This document shows, piece after piece, positions 4,946 through 43,271 of a DNA stretch of 64,000 nt. How positions within the stretch are numbered: position 1 is the stretch's first letter; every line of letters starts with the position of its first letter. The stretch is from the IMG/VR virus record IMGVR_UViG_3300034044_000040, positions 1-64,000 of that record; one strand, 5' to 3'. The translations under genes were made by a program, and so were the position numbers. The stretch comes from a virus. The notes beneath the pieces were generated by a model. That model worked only from the letters and a program-made list of their open reading frames with translations. It ran no database searches and had not been told where the DNA came from.

Positions 4946-5042
4946 CACCACTCACGGTGGGGGGATGGCCACGGCTGTCCCCCATTTCACACGATCAACG
5001 ACACATGTAGATTTGCAACGGGGTGCAATTAAGGTGAGAAAT

Positions 5043-5828
5043 ATGGATTGGCAGGGGGATCACACCATTTCAGATGTTGTTTCTGGCGGTAAAACGCACA
5101 AGAATATGATAGGGCTGGTCAGACACGTTGACGGATATCTGATAGGCACGATTGATCCTATCAAATTTACCGGAGGGCTGGTCAGGATACCGAACCGTGC
5201 GGCCCTGAACAACCTCGCACGCGACCCCTCAGCAACCCAAGTGATGCGCGAGCATCCGCTCGTGGAAGAACAGGGAATTTTCCTTGCATATCCTGTGCAA
5301 ACGATTGTGACGACCGAACAGATCACGTCCTACGATCACGACGGCAGGTCGATCCAGATACCGGTCCATGAGGTGGAGGCCATTTCGAACCTCGACCGCA
5401 ATTCTGTCGCGGTTAGGCACACGTATATGGTGCTTGAGGTGCAGGATATAGAATATGCCACCTTGCTTCCGGGGTTCCGCTATATGAGCAACTTCAGCGA
5501 GATAATCAGGGAGTGGGCGAAGAAGCCAAATGATGCGGAGCGCCAGATACAAAGTCTCAGGCAATCGCTCAGAGAACAGGAGGCGGATTTATATCAGATA
5601 ACAGCGGAAAAGGCGGCTGCCGAGCGCCTCGCCGAAAGCCTTGAGGCGGACAAAGCGTTGCTCGTGGCCGTCCTCAACTGCATCGCGGACAAGGCACCGC
5701 TGGGGACGATATCCAATACGGTTCGTGAGGTATTGATCTCACGTTCCCTGCTGAAAGAAGATAAGCTGCCGGAGGTCACCCTCGAAAATATACCTCAACA
5801 TCGCGCACGAAAATTAGACCTATCATAG
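5043..5828 (+). CDS. hypothetical protein with coiled coil
   Basis: AAGGTG RBS; heptad-rich C-terminal half; ends RARKLDLS. Confidence 0.65.
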   Translation: MDWQGDHTISDVVSGGKTHKNMIGLVRHVDGYLIGTIDPIKFTGGLVRIPNRAALNNLARDPSATQVMREHPLVEEQGIFLAYPVQTIVTTEQITSYDHDGRSIQIPVHEVEAISNLDRNSVAVRHTYMVLEVQDIEYATLLPGFRYMSNFSEIIREWAKKPNDAERQIQSLRQSLREQEADLYQITAEKAAAERLAESLEADKALLVAVLNCIADKAPLGTISNTVREVLISRSLLKEDKLPEVTLENIPQHRARKLDLS

Positions 5829-9481: not shown

Positions 9482-9802
9482 ATGGACTTATGGGTGCTGG
9501 GTATCCTGTGGATCGGTGCTTACCTTTTCACGCGCAGAAATCGGCAGTGCCGGTGTAAACAGTGCGAACATCCAGAACAACCAGAGCCTCAAGAGCAGGC
9601 TGCGCACCCTGACCTCACCAAATTGCGCAACGATCTGTACGCCCTCGACATGAAGATCAGTATGATTGACAGGGTGGTGGCTGGTATGCTCCGGGATCGG
9701 GAGCAGGAATTGCGGGATGCCACCACATCACCCCCTCCGGCCCGCACGCCCACACGGCCCACGCGGGAGACAAAATATCTGCGTAAACTCGATCTACAAT
9801 AA
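9482..9802 (+). CDS. membrane-anchored coiled-coil protein
   Basis: N-terminal TM, CxCxxC, ends LRKLDLQ. Confidence 0.6.
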   Translation: MDLWVLGILWIGAYLFTRRNRQCRCKQCEHPEQPEPQEQAAHPDLTKLRNDLYALDMKISMIDRVVAGMLRDREQELRDATTSPPPARTPTRPTRETKYLRKLDLQ

Positions 9803-9813
9803 GCATTTTTCTC

Positions 9814-9841
9814 TTGCAAATAATCGTGGTTGTGTTATGCT
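9814..9841 (+). promoter_or_regulatory. Early promoter, family copy 4
   Basis: 9805-9860 is identical to 168-223 (56 bp). Confidence 0.85.
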
Positions 9842-9871
9842 GTAAAAGTCAGAAGAGAGAGGGACACAATC

Positions 9872-11809
9872 ATGACCGCTTTAACGCTTACAGACCAACG
9901 CCCATGCGCGCTGAATTTTCTCAAACAAGAGACGGAATACCGCAAATACGGGACCACGTTTTACCACACCGACACGAATTCGGATCACGTTCTGCACCTG
10001 CCCATCGTAGGTCTTCTGATCACGAAACACCCAAGCTGGGATTACTATGTGAAGAAGCACTTCTGGCTGGACCAAATTGCTGAAAACCCAGACATGACAG
10101 AACCTACTGAATGCCTCACCGCTGCACTGGTGCTGGCCCCGCGCCTGACCAAAAACCAGCTGGATTACATAGATTGGTTCACTCAGTCACAGTTTACCCG
10201 AGTGTGGAGCGAAGAAACGAATTCGTTCGTCTTGTTCCGCAAGGTGATGTACGAGAATTACACCTACAGTGCTCCGAGGGAGGTGCGTGCTCACGCGCAA
10301 ATCAGGAGCACGTGTGGTCGCCCCTATGTCACCGCGCATTTTCATGAGGAGCAGGGCGACCCCGCGCGGGTATGGGTTACGCAGGATGCCGTGGACGTGG
10401 CGATAACGGTGGGTTACGCGATCAGCCGGGCCATCGGCAAATCAGATTACACCATCTATATTCACCCTTGCGGGGCACGTAACATTGAGGGCTTCGATAT
10501 CAACCGCGCAGCCGTGAGAAACATGGTAACCGCATGGAACCAGCTTAACGCGGGTCCGGAGGAAGGGGAGCAGGAGAATGTAGCAGATGCCAGCCGGTTT
10601 AGCACCTTCGACACGCATGAAGCGGTACGCATCCTGCGGCCCGTCAGCCGGGACATGGACCTTCCCATACGTGCAGACGCCGATGTGTCCAAGAACACGC
10701 TTGACAGGCAATCTGTCACTGGGCTGTGCAGGAGTATCAAAGCGATCACGAAGCGCCAGAAGGAAAAAATGGAAATGCCGAAAGCCGCAGGCAGGCTGAT
10801 AAACTTCGGCATAGACGAAGAGAAGGCACCTGACACCGCACTCGTGCCGAGAGATTTCATGGATGGGTTTTCCTACGACCGTGGCACCAGCTATGACAAT
10901 ACCATCGGTGATCTCATGGTCATCGGGCTTACGAAATCACTCACACCGATCAGGTTCCAGCCCGTCACCACTGAGTGGGTGGTGGACAGAAACTTGACGA
11001 GTGACATACTCAGCATCGAGCATTCCGCGATGTGGACCCGAGAACTGCGCACGTCATGGCTGTCACCGGAGAGCCGGGTGTATGTGCACAAAAGCGCCAC
11101 GCATTTCAGGTTCCTGTTTGCTGTAAAAGTCAACGCTGTATTACCAATACGGCTCAGCTCGATGACCAAATTTCCCGTGTTCATTTGTTTTGGGCACAAT
11201 GTACCGGTCGCTGGCATCAACACCGACTTCAGGACGACTTGGCGCGGCGCGCATCCTGATCTCATCGCTGCAATCAACGCGGTTCCGGGACTTCCCATCG
11301 CCTTGGTGTCCGCCCTGAATGAGGCCGGGGCGCAGATGAAGAAGATATCTGGGGATGCTGACACCTTTTGGGGGTTGTTCAATGCAGAGCGTCCATGCGA
11401 CGGGCATGTCATAGCGTTTACAGGATGGGGCCGCGAAGAAATAGAACGCCTCGACGATGAAGTAGGGATGACACGTGATGAAGATCAACGATCAATGTAT
11501 TACAGGACGTGGAAGGATAAATACGGTTTTGGCGGGAGCAACATAGATTACCGCAGAGACGGCCTGTGGAGCGTTCACAAAATAAGGGCGCGTGGATACC
11601 GGGGCCGGGGCGTTCCTTACCCTCGGGTGCTGGATTACGCGAAGCGGTGCTTCGCCAACGTGGGCAAAAACCTGATCGTGACCGCCGCCCCACGGACGGA
11701 GGGAAGCAATCTAAAATTGCAACCAGTTGCACGGCATCTGGATATCGACAACGAAACTGATATCCGGAAGAACGATTACCGGCTGAACAGGACCGTGAAC
11801 CTGTTTTGA
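9872..11809 (+). CDS. large hypothetical early protein (645 aa)
   Basis: GAGGGA RBS behind promoter copy 4; no family recognised. Confidence 0.75.
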   Translation: MTALTLTDQRPCALNFLKQETEYRKYGTTFYHTDTNSDHVLHLPIVGLLITKHPSWDYYVKKHFWLDQIAENPDMTEPTECLTAALVLAPRLTKNQLDYIDWFTQSQFTRVWSEETNSFVLFRKVMYENYTYSAPREVRAHAQIRSTCGRPYVTAHFHEEQGDPARVWVTQDAVDVAITVGYAISRAIGKSDYTIYIHPCGARNIEGFDINRAAVRNMVTAWNQLNAGPEEGEQENVADASRFSTFDTHEAVRILRPVSRDMDLPIRADADVSKNTLDRQSVTGLCRSIKAITKRQKEKMEMPKAAGRLINFGIDEEKAPDTALVPRDFMDGFSYDRGTSYDNTIGDLMVIGLTKSLTPIRFQPVTTEWVVDRNLTSDILSIEHSAMWTRELRTSWLSPESRVYVHKSATHFRFLFAVKVNAVLPIRLSSMTKFPVFICFGHNVPVAGINTDFRTTWRGAHPDLIAAINAVPGLPIALVSALNEAGAQMKKISGDADTFWGLFNAERPCDGHVIAFTGWGREEIERLDDEVGMTRDEDQRSMYYRTWKDKYGFGGSNIDYRRDGLWSVHKIRARGYRGRGVPYPRVLDYAKRCFANVGKNLIVTAAPRTEGSNLKLQPVARHLDIDNETDIRKNDYRLNRTVNLF

Positions 11810-39242: not shown

Positions 39243-39336
39243 TTTTTTTGTTGCAACCCGTTGCACAAGGTGGTAGGTATTAGGGGACATCATGTTCATA
39301 TTTGCCGTTTTGCATGATGCTGGTTGAACACTCTAT

Positions 39337-39415: not shown

Positions 39416-39443
39416 TTGCAAATAATCGTGGTTGTGGTATTGT
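39416..39443 (+). promoter_or_regulatory. Early promoter, family copy 5
   Basis: TTGCAA-ataatcgtggttgtgg-TATTGT. Confidence 0.8.
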
Positions 39444-39484
39444 GATCTTGTCGAAAGGTTAATTACACACATAGAGAGGGTACC

Positions 39485-41212
39485 ATGACTAACATTCCAA
39501 CGACTACTACCATGACGCAAGAGCAAGCGGAGCAGCGTAACGCTGATGCGTTCAACGAAAAGCTCCGCGTGCTTGACGCCGCAGCGTGTGGCGTCATCCT
39601 TTGCCGCACACGTGAACCACATCGCGCCATCGAGGCCGTTCGCAACTATGCGTTTTCCCGTGAAGGTATGGGATTTTCAAACTGGACGCCACTTTACGGA
39701 TGGGAAACCTATGATCGGGCTGATCCACTGAAAGACCCGGACACGGACGGTGAGCAGAACCCAGTGCCCGCCTTGCACAAAATCGGCGGCATCGGGTCGG
39801 GGCAGGGTATGCCCAACGGTTTCTATACCGTATTTTTCCCGCATTTCTGGCTCAAGGATAATGTGGGCGCACGGGTGCCAATCATCTATACGCTGAAAGA
39901 ATACGTGCGCCTGTTCTCTGAGACAAAGCGCCGCCTCGTGCTGATCGCACCGGTCGGGTACACATTGCCCACAGAGATCGCGGAAGATGTCGTGGTTCTA
40001 GATTTCGATACACCCAGCTTTGCAGAATTGCGGGCCAGTCTCGATTTCCTTCTGGACACGCTGGCAAACAATCCGAACATCGGCGACGATAGCAAGCGCC
40101 GCGTCGTGGCCAAGGGTATCTCGAACATAAGCGACGAGGACAAGCGCCGTATCGTGGCTGCGGGCATGGGCATGAGCCAGCAGGAATTCGAGACCGCAGT
40201 GAGCCGCGCCCTTGTCACATATCGCAGGCAGCTCCCTGCCCTTCCGATTGACGGCATCGTTGACGAGGTTATGTCGGTGAAAACCGAGGTGGTCAAACGC
40301 TCCGAGGTTCTTGAGGTCATGCCAACCACGGGCATGGATCAGGTCGGCGGGCTGGATAACCTGAAGGAATGGGTTGTGAAGCGCAGGGCGTGTTTCTCTA
40401 CCGAGGCGAAAGAATTCGGCATTGAGGCACCGAAAGGGGCTGGTCTGTTCGGACCTCCGGGGACCGGCAAAAGCCTCAGCGCCAAGGCCATCGCGTCCTC
40501 ACTCGGGCTGCCCCTGATCAAGTTTGACGTGGGCCGCGTGTTCCAGTCCCTTGTCGGGCAATCTGAGGAGCGTGTCAGGGCATCCCTGAAGATGCTCGAC
40601 AGTCTCGCGCCCTGCGTCGTTTTGCTGGACGAGATTGACAAAGCCTTCCAAACCAACTCAGGCGGCGATAGCGGGGTATCCCAGCGCGTGCTCGGGGCCA
40701 TCTTGACCCACATGCAGGAAAGTAGCTCCCCTATCTTCTGGGTGTTCTCAGCCAACCGTGTTGACCGGCTTCCACCTGAATTGCTGCGCAGGGGTCGCTT
40801 GGATGAAATATTCGCGGTCACGGTTCCGGACGAGGACGAGCGGCTGGAAATCCTGAAAATCCATCTGAACAAGCGCAAGCAAAAGGCGGATGATATTCCG
40901 GAACTCGACGCCGCCGTCGCAGCATCAGAAGGGTACGTGCCTGCGGAAATTGAACAGGCGGTCAAGGATGCGCTGATCGAGGCGTTCACCAACGGTGGAG
41001 CTATCACTGGACCACTGATCGCGGAGCAGCTGGCGAACATGAAACCATTGTCTGAGGCGTTCGCGGAAGATTTCAACGCCATGCAGCAATGGGCGGAAAA
41101 CAATGCACGCCCTGCGTCGGCGCGGATCAAGCGGGCCTTACCGCTGGTTCGGGATCGCGCAAGCCGCCCCTCCTCAGCAGGTGGCGGGCGTGCGGTACAG
41201 ATTGGGGCATAG
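39485..41212 (+). CDS. AAA+ ATPase, Ycf46-like
   Basis: VGGLDNLKEW, GPPGTGKS, VGQSEE, LLDEIDK, SAN...LPPELLRRGRLDEIF. Confidence 0.92.
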   Translation: MTNIPTTTTMTQEQAEQRNADAFNEKLRVLDAAACGVILCRTREPHRAIEAVRNYAFSREGMGFSNWTPLYGWETYDRADPLKDPDTDGEQNPVPALHKIGGIGSGQGMPNGFYTVFFPHFWLKDNVGARVPIIYTLKEYVRLFSETKRRLVLIAPVGYTLPTEIAEDVVVLDFDTPSFAELRASLDFLLDTLANNPNIGDDSKRRVVAKGISNISDEDKRRIVAAGMGMSQQEFETAVSRALVTYRRQLPALPIDGIVDEVMSVKTEVVKRSEVLEVMPTTGMDQVGGLDNLKEWVVKRRACFSTEAKEFGIEAPKGAGLFGPPGTGKSLSAKAIASSLGLPLIKFDVGRVFQSLVGQSEERVRASLKMLDSLAPCVVLLDEIDKAFQTNSGGDSGVSQRVLGAILTHMQESSSPIFWVFSANRVDRLPPELLRRGRLDEIFAVTVPDEDERLEILKIHLNKRKQKADDIPELDAAVAASEGYVPAEIEQAVKDALIEAFTNGGAITGPLIAEQLANMKPLSEAFAEDFNAMQQWAENNARPASARIKRALPLVRDRASRPSSAGGGRAVQIGA

Positions 41213-41325
41213 GTACCCTCACGCGCCTGTCCCTTTCGATGAATGGCAGGCGCGTGCGCCCCAATACCCGGTGGGAGCTAACCCCTCCCACCGGGGCCTT
41301 ATTTCCGATGTTATAGGAGGCCAAT

Positions 41326-41985
41326 ATGCTATTACACACGACAACCGGGTCTGAGACCTTCGACACAGGGTCATGCAAGTACCAAGTCGTGGTCATGCCC
41401 ACGAGAAATCTGAGGTTACCAAAAGAGGTGTTCATTTCCATGGCTGCACGGTCACCGGGTAATGAATGTAATATACGGACCGCGAGGATGCAGAAGATAG
41501 CGGTGGTAGCGGGGTCCATGGTCGATTTCGGGACTTGGTGGCAGTCGGTATATGAGGTACCAGACGGCCTGATACTCAAGGTGTTCGGACAGCGAACCAT
41601 GCGTGCAAGCTCATATGGTGCGCGTGGTGGTAACCTCACGCAAACGGGCGCGCTGTTAATCAAAACAAGAGCGGATGCAGCCCTGAGAAGTATTCAATGT
41701 CAGACGACCGGGAACACGCGCGCCACGTTCAGCGATGTCAGGATCGAGGGACGATTTGACGTATTGTCGCTCAGGGATGCGGTGCAACAAGGGGTGATCA
41801 TAAACATGTCCTATGCAAAACAGTTCGTTGCACATCAGGATATTGCTGCCCTGTTCAGGGAAACCCTGATGGATGCGGAGATCGCTGCCCCGGCACAGGC
41901 TGCAACGGTGACGGTTCGCAATGATGAAGGTAATGAGGTGCAGATAACGACAAGAAAACGACGCCGCGCCATAAATTTCGATTAA
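41326..41985 (+). CDS. hypothetical protein
   Basis: AGGAGG RBS; ends RKRRRAINFD. Confidence 0.7.
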   Translation: MLLHTTTGSETFDTGSCKYQVVVMPTRNLRLPKEVFISMAARSPGNECNIRTARMQKIAVVAGSMVDFGTWWQSVYEVPDGLILKVFGQRTMRASSYGARGGNLTQTGALLIKTRADAALRSIQCQTTGNTRATFSDVRIEGRFDVLSLRDAVQQGVIINMSYAKQFVAHQDIAALFRETLMDAEIAAPAQAATVTVRNDEGNEVQITTRKRRRAINFD

Positions 41986-41993
41986 AATATGTC

Positions 41994-42021
41994 TTGCAAA
42001 TAATCGTGGCCGTGGTATTAT
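41994..42021 (+). promoter_or_regulatory. Early promoter, family copy 6
   Basis: TTGCAA-ataatcgtggccgtgg-TATTAT. Confidence 0.8.
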
Positions 42022-42053
42022 AAAGTATAGATCAGAGAGAAAGGAAAACATCT

Positions 42054-42521
42054 ATGTCACACACAACAACTCTTCGCGGGGTTCAGATCACGAACCCAAC
42101 AGCCATTCAGCGTGCAGTCGCAGACCTTGTTAGTCAAGGCATCCAGATCGAGCTTCTGGAAAACGCGACACCGCGCATGTATTACAAGCGCCAAGAAAAC
42201 GAAATTGGCAAATGCGACTACGTGCTCAAAATCGCAAACTCACGCTATGACGTGGGGCTGAAGTGGAACGCCAAGGAAAAGCAGTACGACGCAATCATGG
42301 ACACATGGGCCGGTGAGGTGGCTGGTCAAATTGGCGCGACCTGCCCTGCACCCCGTGATGCGGGCAAACAAGGTGAGCACGCCATCGGAAAATTCACCCA
42401 GCGTTACCTCCTGCACGCCGCGAAGATTTCGGCGATGAATGAGGGGTATTCCGTTATCGGTGAAAACATCGGTGATGATGGTGCCATCCAGCTGGAACTC
42501 GCAGTGGACAATTACGCATAG
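42054..42521 (+). CDS. DUF1257 (Ycf35)-like protein
   Basis: MSH...I.....A...L...YDVG...Y...D.W...QRY...A...GY...DGAIQL pattern. Confidence 0.75.
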   Translation: MSHTTTLRGVQITNPTAIQRAVADLVSQGIQIELLENATPRMYYKRQENEIGKCDYVLKIANSRYDVGLKWNAKEKQYDAIMDTWAGEVAGQIGATCPAPRDAGKQGEHAIGKFTQRYLLHAAKISAMNEGYSVIGENIGDDGAIQLELAVDNYA

Positions 42522-42571
42522 TCAAAACTGACCGTGCGGACAAATCGTAGATTAGAAAGAAGGATAACGAC

Positions 42572-42775
42572 ATGAAAACGATCACAGTGACAATTCCACA
42601 GTATGGATCACCAAAGGTGGAGGCCAATGGTTTTGACGGTGAGGGTTGTGCAGCCGCCACCAAGCCGATTGAACAGGCCCTGTCCGGAAACATCAAAGCT
42701 GATGTGGAATACAAGCCGGAATGGTCAAACCCGGAAACCCACTCAGAGCATGAGGAGGAAACCCTGAAATGGTAA
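42572..42775 (+). CDS. DUF2997-like protein
   Basis: ITVTI...G...VEANGFDGEGC...T..IEQAL.G......KPEW. Confidence 0.8.
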   Translation: MKTITVTIPQYGSPKVEANGFDGEGCAAATKPIEQALSGNIKADVEYKPEWSNPETHSEHEEETLKW

Positions 42776-43116
42776 CGCAGGTGATCACGATCACTCGGGA
42801 CGGGGTTCTGTCGGGTTTGCAAGTCAAACCCGGCAAGGGCTTGGACCTTCGCCAATTCGGAAAGGCAGATATAGTCCGCGCATCTGAAATCGCGTGGGAT
42901 GGTGAAGTACAAGCGTGGTTCGTTGACGTCATACAGGAGGCCGGTCGGGGTAAACTCACAGTCGCCAAGTGGCGCAAGGCTGGATTGCAGGGTGATCCTG
43001 CTCACGCGAATAGCACTGAAGCTGATGATGAGGTATACATGTTCGACGGTTACGACGACGCCGTGGCAGCAGAAATCGAGTATCTCAACGCGCTCCGGTG
43101 GCAGGGTATCTACTGA
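42769..43116 (+). CDS. conserved partner protein of the DUF1257/DUF2997 module
   Basis: I..DG...LDL..FG...IVRASEI...W.VD...F..YDDAVAAEIEYL. Confidence 0.65.
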   Translation: MVTQVITITRDGVLSGLQVKPGKGLDLRQFGKADIVRASEIAWDGEVQAWFVDVIQEAGRGKLTVAKWRKAGLQGDPAHANSTEADDEVYMFDGYDDAVAAEIEYLNALRWQGIY

Positions 43117-43271
43117 TCCCGAAAACTTTTCGTTGCAACCCGTTGCATAATTCAAGACAGCCAAAGGGCACGACGGAAATGTACACAAGCTATGGGGAGT
43201 GCTGATAATGTGCTCCCCACATATGGTGTAAAGGGGAAAATCTGATAAAATTTATACCGCTCACAAAATGA

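Follow-up and report, generated by a model that had tools for sequence, protein, structure and literature searches.

The plastid genes ycf46 and ycf35, two of the "hypothetical chloroplast reading frames", are conserved from cyanobacteria to red-lineage plastids, and the available portions of two papers on them state that the biochemical function of their products is unknown (PMC13060386, PMC7496141). In cyanobacteria, Ycf46 is encoded by a host stress operon (slr0374 / Synpcc7942_0417), which the accessible text of PMC7496141 and PMC13683863 describes as (p)ppGpp-dependent and induced by many stresses. Ycf35, which belongs to the family DUF1257, has a separate setting, and the part of PMC4284462 that was available lists for cyanobacteria the gene order DUF2997, Ycf35, 4Fe-4S ferredoxin. 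Here, we describe a virus-borne gene set that contains all three families. It lies within the first 64 kb (64,000 nucleotides; hereafter, the window) of the IMG/VR virus record IMGVR_UViG_3300034044_000040, a record of 85,340 bp with direct terminal repeats. Five genes, all on the + strand and at the places given for them by an earlier prediction made from the sequence alone (the original prediction), encode a Ycf46-type AAA ATPase, an orphan protein of 219 amino acids (p219), a DUF1257 protein, a DUF2997 protein and a protein of 115 amino acids (p115).

Compared with the cyanobacterial Ycf46 operon, the phage set has a full-length homologous ATPase of the same clade, and in both cases a DUF1257 gene is present, one or more such genes following ycf46 in cyanobacteria. 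Unlike the phage set, the cyanobacterial operon begins with a ribbon-helix-helix (RHH) regulator and lacks DUF2997, p115 and p219. The cyanobacterial Ycf35–DUF2997–Fed7 cluster shares with the phage the same two small families as neighbors, the Met-Ser-His (MSH) start of the DUF1257 protein and the invariant cysteine of the DUF2997 protein; unlike in the phage, the order is reversed, with DUF2997 first, a ferredoxin gene follows and no ATPase gene is adjacent. DUF1257 and DUF2997 are established Pfam families, and homologues of the phage proteins are already in GenBank, labelled "AAA ATPase" and, in one case, "DUF1257 domain-containing protein". Within the available portions of the literature on DUF1257 and DUF2997, Ycf46 and Ycf35, slr0374 and Synpcc7942_0417, and the carrier phages, no account of the phage module or of a mechanism for Ycf46, Ycf35 or DUF2997 was found; the accessible text of one carrier-phage paper (PMC8601537) makes no mention of the module. 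New here are the full-length tie between the phage ATPase and a named Ycf46, the split and fused layouts of the gene set, a modelled heterodimer of the two DUF proteins, p115 as a widespread candidate fourth member and, as a lead, a common C-terminal tail that is limited to some lineages.

The ATPase and its relatives

The first gene of the module (39485 to 41212, + strand) encodes a classic-clade AAA ATPase of 575 amino acids, with an N-terminal domain of approximately 270 residues, a single AAA module and a C-terminal tail ending in GRAVQIGA. It matches phrog_8638 (E 8.6e-164) and passes PF00004 (E 1.6e-31; 109.9 bits against a cut-off of 21.2). The motifs of an intact enzyme, which the original prediction had read from the sequence, are all present: Walker A is GPPGTGKS (residues 323–330), Walker B is VVLLDEID (378–385), the sensor-1 asparagine lies in FSANR (421–425) and the second region of homology carries its two arginines in LLRRGRLDE (433–441). 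By alignment, the sensor-1 asparagine and both arginine fingers match the same residues in the D1 and D2 modules of Cdc48.

The likeness to Ycf46, claimed in the same prediction, could be traced to a named protein. Residues 23–536 of the phage ATPase align with residues 1–481 of P0157 at 34% identity (E 2e-84), P0157 being the UniRef entry "AAA domain-containing protein ycf46" of Leptolyngbya JSC-1, whose gene is directly followed by a DUF1257 gene. It was reached by searching five cyanobacterial genomes with the DUF1257 model (PF06868). The homology spans the N-terminal domain and the C-terminal extension as well as the AAA module. A quickly searched tree without bootstrap values, with five generic AAA proteins as its root, leaves the deeper branching inside the Ycf46 clade unresolved and places the 27 rows of the Ycf46 family in a clade with 100% support in the Shimodaira–Hasegawa-like approximate likelihood ratio test. 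Besides the window protein, this clade contains eight other sequences of siphophage type, true Ycf46, the forms from Bdellovibrionota, Planctomycetota and jumbo phages, and a second cyanobacterial paralogue. Because the alignment with Ycf46 runs end to end and both proteins fall in this common clade, the relationship is more than a shared AAA domain, and the phage protein is, as judged from its sequence, a full-length Ycf46 homologue. The siphophage-type ATPases form a branch of their own within the clade (96%) and are not nested in the cyanobacterial one, and the ATPases of Bacillota and Desulfobacca are the sister group of the whole clade. Searches of Pfam and NCBIfam returned no Ycf46-specific model for the ATPase, and the N-terminal domain alone (residues 1–270) had no PDB sequence match at E <= 10.

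Among characterized ATPases, Cdc48/p97, PAN and FtsH are the top PDB and NCBIfam matches of the AAA module. They share with the phage protein the Walker, sensor-1 and arginine-finger residues and a layout in which an N-terminal domain, substrate- or adaptor-binding in these enzymes, precedes the AAA module. Unlike them, the phage ATPase has only one AAA module and neither a protease domain nor an HbYX-type tail (it ends in QIGA), and its N-terminal domain, unlike those of the Cdc48 type, has no detectable PDB relative. Its NCBIfam scores of 130.3 bits for CDC48 (cut-off 802.65), 110.1 for PAN (500) and 95.2 for FtsH (600) lie so far under the cut-offs that it is not a member of those families. 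A partial relative was seen on a contig of Mesorhizobium ventifaucium, where an open reading frame (ORF) of 286 amino acids matches only the N-terminal half of the ATPase (42% identity, residues 39–315); it is probably the remnant of a related prophage.

Linkage and the small proteins

Gene linkage was surveyed with iterated profiles over 168 fetched loci, 160 of which had been fetched by ATPase similarity. The order ATPase, p219, DUF1257, DUF2997, p115 is kept in five of the six named phage loci examined (L338C, HJ05, JP1, SM1 and RcTiptonus), Catdawg being the one without it. Among the loci fetched by ATPase similarity, 22 of 160 have a DUF1257 gene and then directly a DUF2997 gene on the strand of the ATPase, and these loci belong to Planctomycetota, Bdellovibrionota, Bacillota, Desulfobacca, Chroococcidiopsis, a Chitinophagaceae contig and contigs of jumbo phages. 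Relative to the ATPase gene, the pair is downstream in phages and Bdellovibrionota and upstream in Planctomycetota, Bacillota, Desulfobacca and Chroococcidiopsis. The copies from jumbo phages and Bacteriovorax are confirmed by Pfam. Mapped onto the ATPase tree, linkage requires 5 changes, compared with 19.4 in shuffles. A comparison of gene neighborhoods in phages and chromosomes, which the original prediction had proposed as a check, thus finds the genes together in both.

That prediction had also pointed to a clustering of ycf46, ycf35 and DUF2997 in planctomycetes and cyanobacteria. The planctomycete part stands, since the genes for the ATPase, DUF1257 and DUF2997 form one operon at three Planctomycetota loci; in the sampled cyanobacteria, the genes are usually split over two clusters, and all three occur together at a single Chroococcidiopsis locus. 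Each of five sampled cyanobacterial genomes has 3 to 6 DUF1257 genes. At eight loci, ycf46 has a DUF1257 paralogue beside it. This paralogue is shorter than canonical Ycf35 and comes after ycf46, which an RHH gene precedes, and in three genomes, ycf46 is directly followed by one or two DUF1257 genes. The other cluster, found at six loci, runs from DUF2997 through canonical Ycf35 to a 4Fe-4S ferredoxin. With ycf46 beside DUF1257 and Ycf35 beside DUF2997, the three families are tied pairwise despite the split. The gene slr0376 or Synpcc7942_0418 is presumably the DUF1257 gene of its operon, an assumption carried over from Leptolyngbya. The RHH–ycf46–DUF1257 layout agrees with the three-gene operon of S. 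elongatus, as given in the accessible part of PMC13683863.

The reading that cyanobacterial Ycf46 is unlinked to these families was considered and rejected: the ATPases of loci L096–L127 are a different paralogue, and the PF06868 search of five genomes finds true ycf46 linked. These paralogues make up the second cyanobacterial clade mentioned above and have neither DUF1257 nor DUF2997 within 8 kb. On two viral contigs of 215 and 26 kb (L018 and L022, respectively), the gene for a divergent AAA protein of 659 amino acids is closely preceded by those for DUF1257, DUF2997 and a relative of p115. This AAA protein groups with generic AAA proteins and not with Ycf46; from sequence, the small proteins may serve ATPases of different types. 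In Desulfobacca and Bacillota (L130, L134 and L137), the order is a membrane protein of approximately 280 amino acids, a DUF1257-like protein, a DUF2997-like protein and the ATPase. By-eye readings suggest that the ORF upstream resembles PurM/ThiL in L134 and L137 and that the ORF downstream in L137 resembles NifU.

The DUF1257 protein of the window (155 amino acids; 42054 to 42521, + strand) and its DUF2997 protein (67 amino acids; 42572 to 42775, + strand) bear out the labels first given to them, as both pass the Pfam cut-offs. The DUF1257 protein scores 31.2 bits against PF06868 (cut-off 22.2; E 2.8e-7; profile positions 23–102 of 103) and the DUF2997 protein 33.5 bits against PF11211 (cut-off 24.1; E 4e-8), and a six-frame search confirms the two at 30 and 32.9 bits, respectively. 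The DUF1257 protein begins MSHTTT, and the MSH start is found in 31 of 36 aligned relatives; plastid Ycf35 has the same N-terminal Met-Ser-His, according to the available text of PMC13060386. In the DUF2997 protein, Cys26 lies in the motif G-F-x-G-x-x-C and is invariant in 22 of 22 aligned sequences. The protein ends in a tail (KPEW...TLKW) of a kind also seen in the rest of the siphophage group and at canonical cyanobacterial loci (for example, L182, 4925–5134). These tails are polar, follow K-P-E-[WY], often have tryptophan as the last or next-to-last residue (TLKW, QQTW, HQSW, GRW, YSEW) and are probably disordered, to judge from their composition.

The DUF1257 protein is modelled with confidence as an alpha+beta platform (predicted local distance difference test [pLDDT] 93.5; predicted template modelling score 0.87). 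Foldseek found no PDB match to this model at E <= 0.001, and the best VIA-align result against 48,161 chains was Z 5.5, for the KA1 domain 9m86_C (root-mean-square deviation 3.2 over 83 residues), followed by unrelated alpha+beta platforms with similar Z; these values are below the level that would indicate more than a common arrangement. Modelled together, the two proteins reach an interaction score from aligned errors (ipSAE) of 0.77, whereas the best of three controls scored 0.00; the partner pLDDT was 61 or higher, and runs agreed on 89% or more of the contacts. Calibration puts 58 of 80 solved complexes, and 2 of 110 mismatched pairs, at or above the mark used, a guide that is only rough here because our own alignments were used. 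In the model, residues 1–12 of DUF2997 extend the DUF1257 sheet at residues 142–152, and the DUF2997 helix packs against the DUF1257 helix 112–130. Neither PDB sequence nor structure searches found a solved relative of DUF1257 that the model could have remembered. The model supports binding of DUF1257 and DUF2997 to each other. Both Cys26 of DUF2997 and the N-terminal histidine of DUF1257 lie outside the confident contacts and would thus be free for another role.

The fourth small gene anticipated by the original prediction is present at 42769 to 43116 (+ strand) and overlaps the DUF2997 gene by 7 nt. Its product, p115, matches phrog_38408 (E 1.7e-25) and belongs to a large family, with 3149 cluster representatives at E <= 1e-3 and 589 at E <= 1e-10, marked by the motif R-A-S-x-[VI]...W...A..AE. 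A Pfam scan of 53 members found no family common to them in any of the 53. The p115 model is confident (pLDDT 90.0), Foldseek gave no match for it at E <= 0.001, the best VIA result was Z 4.9, and its nearest neighbors in the ESM Atlas are unnamed viral clusters. A DNA pattern for the conserved core of p115 matched more than 120 sites, the majority of them in Planctomycetota; of the 80 loci listed, profile searches confirmed 79. When 8-kb blocks around these 79 loci were examined, 33 contained an ATPase, DUF1257 or DUF2997 gene together with the p115 relative, and 17 contained all three. Wherever any other module part was present (33 of 33 loci), the p115 relative lay downstream of the ATPase on the same strand. 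Among planctomycete-type p115 loci with at least 3 kb of upstream DNA, 25 of 35 have the module. From this distribution, p115 is a candidate frequent fourth member of the gene set.

The remaining protein, p219, is encoded between the ATPase and DUF1257 genes (41326 to 41985, + strand) and ends in RKRRRAINFD. It is as uncharacterized as first described: no family in Pfam, PHROG, NCBIfam or PADLOC matches it, no PDB sequence match or usable ESM Atlas match was found, and its predicted model is poor (pLDDT 0.38). A word-indexed search found only six relatives. Iterated hidden Markov model searches place p219 at the same position in L338C, HJ05, JP1, SM1 and RcTiptonus, and its distribution is confined to the siphophage-type group and one Chitinophagaceae contig; by its sequence, it is fast-evolving. 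Homology with a planctomycete protein of approximately 320 amino acids that occupies the same position was rejected (profile comparison probability 0.06%), and the two are treated as positional analogues rather than homologues.

Genome context and transcription signals

Nearly all long ORFs of the window are on the + strand. A portal gene (11902), a capsid gene (16985), a tape measure gene (22827) and tail genes are followed by genes for a deoxynucleoside monophosphate kinase (36982) and an endolysin (37739), by the five-gene module (39485–43116), and then by a replication block with DnaB (45490) and PolA (46764). Among the window proteins scanned, none in or beside the module fell into a radical-SAM, Hsp70 or GrpE family. 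Of the named phages, Rhizobium phage vB_RleS_L338C is the closest (57.7% protein identity between the ATPases), and megablast of the module region against 50,697 phage records gave no DNA-level match.

Each of the five module genes is preceded by a purine-rich ribosome-binding stretch. The two family promoters of the original prediction were recovered as an exact repeat: the 26-nt sequence TTGCAAATAATCGTGGNNGTGGTATT occurs without mismatch at 39416 and 41994. The first promoter-like copy, TTGCAA-16 nt-TATTGT (39416 to 39443, + strand), is 41 nt upstream of the ATPase start codon, and the second, TTGCAA-16 nt-TATTAT (41994 to 42021, + strand), is 32 nt upstream of the DUF1257 start codon. A generic sigma-70 scan reports the 41994 copy (9/12, with TG) and misses the one at 39416. 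With up to three mismatches, TTGCAAATAATCGTGGNNGTGGTATT has nine copies in the window, all on the + strand (177, 3006, 9814, 39416, 41994, 49700, 58698, 60258 and 63113), compared with 0.00 expected. The copy at 9814 stands at the start of a 659-amino-acid ORF adjoining the portal gene upstream, before the structural block, so the motif is not confined to early genes, and the description of the promoters and module as early is not upheld. The 16-nt spacer of TTGCAAATAATCGTGGNNGTGGTATT is conserved well beyond the requirements of a sigma-70 promoter, which points to a spacer-binding factor.

A palindromic box, GTTGCAACCCGTTGCA, brackets the module with exact copies in its upstream flank (39250 to 39265) and at its downstream end (43132 to 43147); with up to two mismatches, it occurs at 23 sites in the window, compared with 0.08 expected. 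Between the ATPase and p219 genes lies a terminator-like hairpin (41267 to 41295, + strand) with an 11-bp stem, nine G-C pairs and a weak T run.

A possible remodelling machine

Sequence comparison establishes to which families the proteins belong, that the linkage is conserved and that the ATPase motifs are intact. We consider it an evenly balanced proposition that the five genes encode one protein-remodelling machine. Its motor would be the Ycf46-type ATPase, presumably a hexamer like its relatives Cdc48, FtsH and PAN. The predicted DUF1257–DUF2997 heterodimer would act as a cofactor of the ATPase, either as an adaptor or as a regulated first substrate; p115 would be a frequent fourth subunit; and p219 would be a lineage-specific, fast-evolving partner or client with a C-terminal tail resembling that of the ATPase. 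The set would be expressed from the phage's own sigma-70-like promoters, at the head of the block for replication and DNA metabolism, and the machine may unfold or dismantle particular proteins during infection.

Several observations weigh against this proposal. Pore loop 1 of the ATPase is Leu-Val-Gly (SLVGQSE, residues 355–361), hydrophobic where an aromatic residue is normal; the named Ycf46 protein has Met-Val-Gly at the same place, and the leucine is compatible with threading, though of a weaker kind than the canonical form would allow. Because the DUF1257 and p115 folds give no informative match, "adaptor" is a role assigned by analogy. The linkage, too, has soft spots. The DUF1257 and DUF2997 copies of Bacillota and Desulfobacca fail Pfam (L137 has neither family), and the Bacillota copies are identified by iterated profiles, the MSH start, the G-F-x-G-x-x-C motif and gene order; one planctomycete DUF1257 protein reaches only 14.2 bits. 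The module is absent from 10 of the 35 p115-type loci with sufficient upstream DNA, and some genomes have several copies of p115, so p115 is not an obligate member.

The position of the module also lends itself to a reading in which the ATPase and its small partners serve replication, remodelling the initiator–loader–DnaB complex or another replisome step, much as DnaK and DnaJ free DnaB from lambda P. In the window, L338C, HJ05, SM1 and RcTiptonus, no other unit separates the module from the lysis genes before it, and the replication genes lie directly downstream; JP1 has an RNase H1 gene inside the module, and near the module of jumbo contig L018, a by-eye reading of first residues finds ORFs resembling dUTPase and thymidylate kinase. 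However, the position of a phage gene is weak evidence of its function, and the cellular copies have no replication genes nearby, their neighbors being an RHH regulator in cyanobacteria and a membrane protein and NifU-like ORF in Bacillota; such a role is unlikely. The same NifU-like ORF, read by eye after the ATPase in L137, fits a metal or redox module in which the DUF2997 cysteine and the DUF1257 Met-Ser-His form a metal or Fe-S site that the ATPase matures or inserts. The invariance of Cys26 in all 22 DUF2997 sequences is consistent with such a site, as are the MSH start in 31 of 36 DUF1257 proteins and, in the accessible text of PMC13060386, in plastid Ycf35, and the 4Fe-4S ferredoxin gene that follows canonical cyanobacterial DUF2997 and Ycf35 (also in the available part of PMC4284462). 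Still, a heterodimer with one cysteine and one histidine could provide enough ligands for a cluster only by oligomerising, the model places neither residue in its confident interface, and no ferredoxin or Fe-S gene adjoins the phage set; we regard this role as improbable.

A role in conflict between phage and host appears quite improbable. The set could be an anti-defence device, as had been suggested, or an IetAS-type system that the phage carries for exclusion or defence, and the ATPase does match IetA models weakly (PDLC02196, E 1.4e-21; NF042959 [IteA], 70.6 bits), while the DUF2997 protein faintly matches the PADLOC candidate PDC-M02B (positions 219–263, E 0.001). But the IteA score is far under the cut-off of 510 bits, so that the phage ATPase is not a member of that family, and the IteA match and the PADLOC matches to IetA are limited to the AAA domain, generic matches that give the anti-defence suggestion no footing. 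Nothing in the analysis supports the host takeover or membrane remodelling that the original prediction also put forward. The PADLOC scan of seven neighboring proteins found no IetS-type protease or other defence family, and in cyanobacteria, the set is also a chromosomal stress operon (in the parts available of PMC7496141 and PMC13683863). That the five genes are mere neighbors without a common function is hard to credit. The hairpin and the second promoter-like motif do divide the region into two or three transcription units; against this, the same families adjoin across phyla and across phage lineages with little other gene content in common, and DUF1257 and DUF2997 are predicted to bind each other.

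A more specific and doubtful form of the remodelling proposal concerns the C-terminal tails. The ATPase may be a tag-directed unfoldase that reads a C-terminal address, Arg-x-hydrophobic-[Asp/Asn]-hydrophobic, which copies its own tail; DUF1257–DUF2997 and p115 would be the receptor or gate, and the address would be borne by p219 and by orphan proteins, two of them encoded just upstream of the portal gene. Arginine occupies position -7 of the ATPase tail in 28 of 28 relatives. A loose tail pattern (R-x-hydrophobic-x-hydrophobic, then 0 to 4 residues to the C-terminus) fits 56 of 114 relatives of the ATPase and 11 of 14 of p219; among ORFs of module-free viral contigs, it fits 13 of 911. Of the 118 ORFs in the complete virus record, six fit the strict pattern, where shuffled tails predict 0.29 and not one of 300 shuffles yielded as many; in the module-free contigs, 2 of the 911 ORFs fit. 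L338C has three (0.34 expected), and lambda has two, one of them an unannotated minus-strand ORF.

The six strict matches in the virus record are the ATPase, p219 and four orphan ORFs without a Pfam or PHROG family. Three of the orphans are in the window on the + strand, with 287 amino acids (4965 to 5828, ending in RKLDLS), 106 amino acids (9482 to 9802, RKLDLQ) and 659 amino acids (9830 to 11809, RTVNLF), the last adjoining the portal gene upstream; the fourth, of 101 amino acids (RDVDLT), lies beyond the window at 80359–80664 of the record. In both this phage and L338C, the two ORFs directly before the portal gene bear the tail, and L338C_016, at the position equivalent to that of the 659-amino-acid ORF, ends in TRNVRI. 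The planctomycete protein of approximately 320 amino acids, which lies between the ATPase and p115 genes, has a related basic tail; at locus L231 it ends in RRKRAINLDD, close to the RRRAINFD of p219. At five other planctomycete loci, this protein has a near-identical tail, DRPRRNILRR, and the ATPases there end in RRVxRDPSxN.

The tail reading faces difficulties of its own. The motif is not enriched in HJ05 (no strict and five loose matches, not significant) or SM1 (none of either), and BLASTP of the tagged orphans against L338C, HJ05 and SM1 found no homologues. Moreover, the pattern was shaped on the tails of the ATPase and p219, and only the counts among other genes are independent. The common tail is best taken as a lead to a lineage-limited effect. 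Recognition of the tail by the ATPase would have parallels, by analogy only, in Mpa/ARC–Pup and ClpX–ssrA–SspB, with which the module shares a ring ATPase, a small protein that is disordered in part and perhaps a short peptide at the client's terminus that serves as an address; unlike those systems, to which no sequence relation was found, it has no PafA-like ligase or protease partner. If the tag reading is true, the phage carries its own client-tagging system, and the same logic would account for Ycf46 and Ycf35 of plastids and cyanobacteria.

The Ycf46 and Ycf35 families, together with DUF2997, thus form one compact phage operon. Homologous operons are found in phages that can be cultured on Pseudomonas (SM1 and PaMx31), Rhizobium (L338C), Aeromonas (HJ05), Rhodobacter and Agrobacterium, and such small-genome phages with easy genetics could reveal a mechanism that is hard to reach in phototrophs. 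For phage biology, the gene set points to a conserved accessory machine encoded in approximately 3.7 kb.

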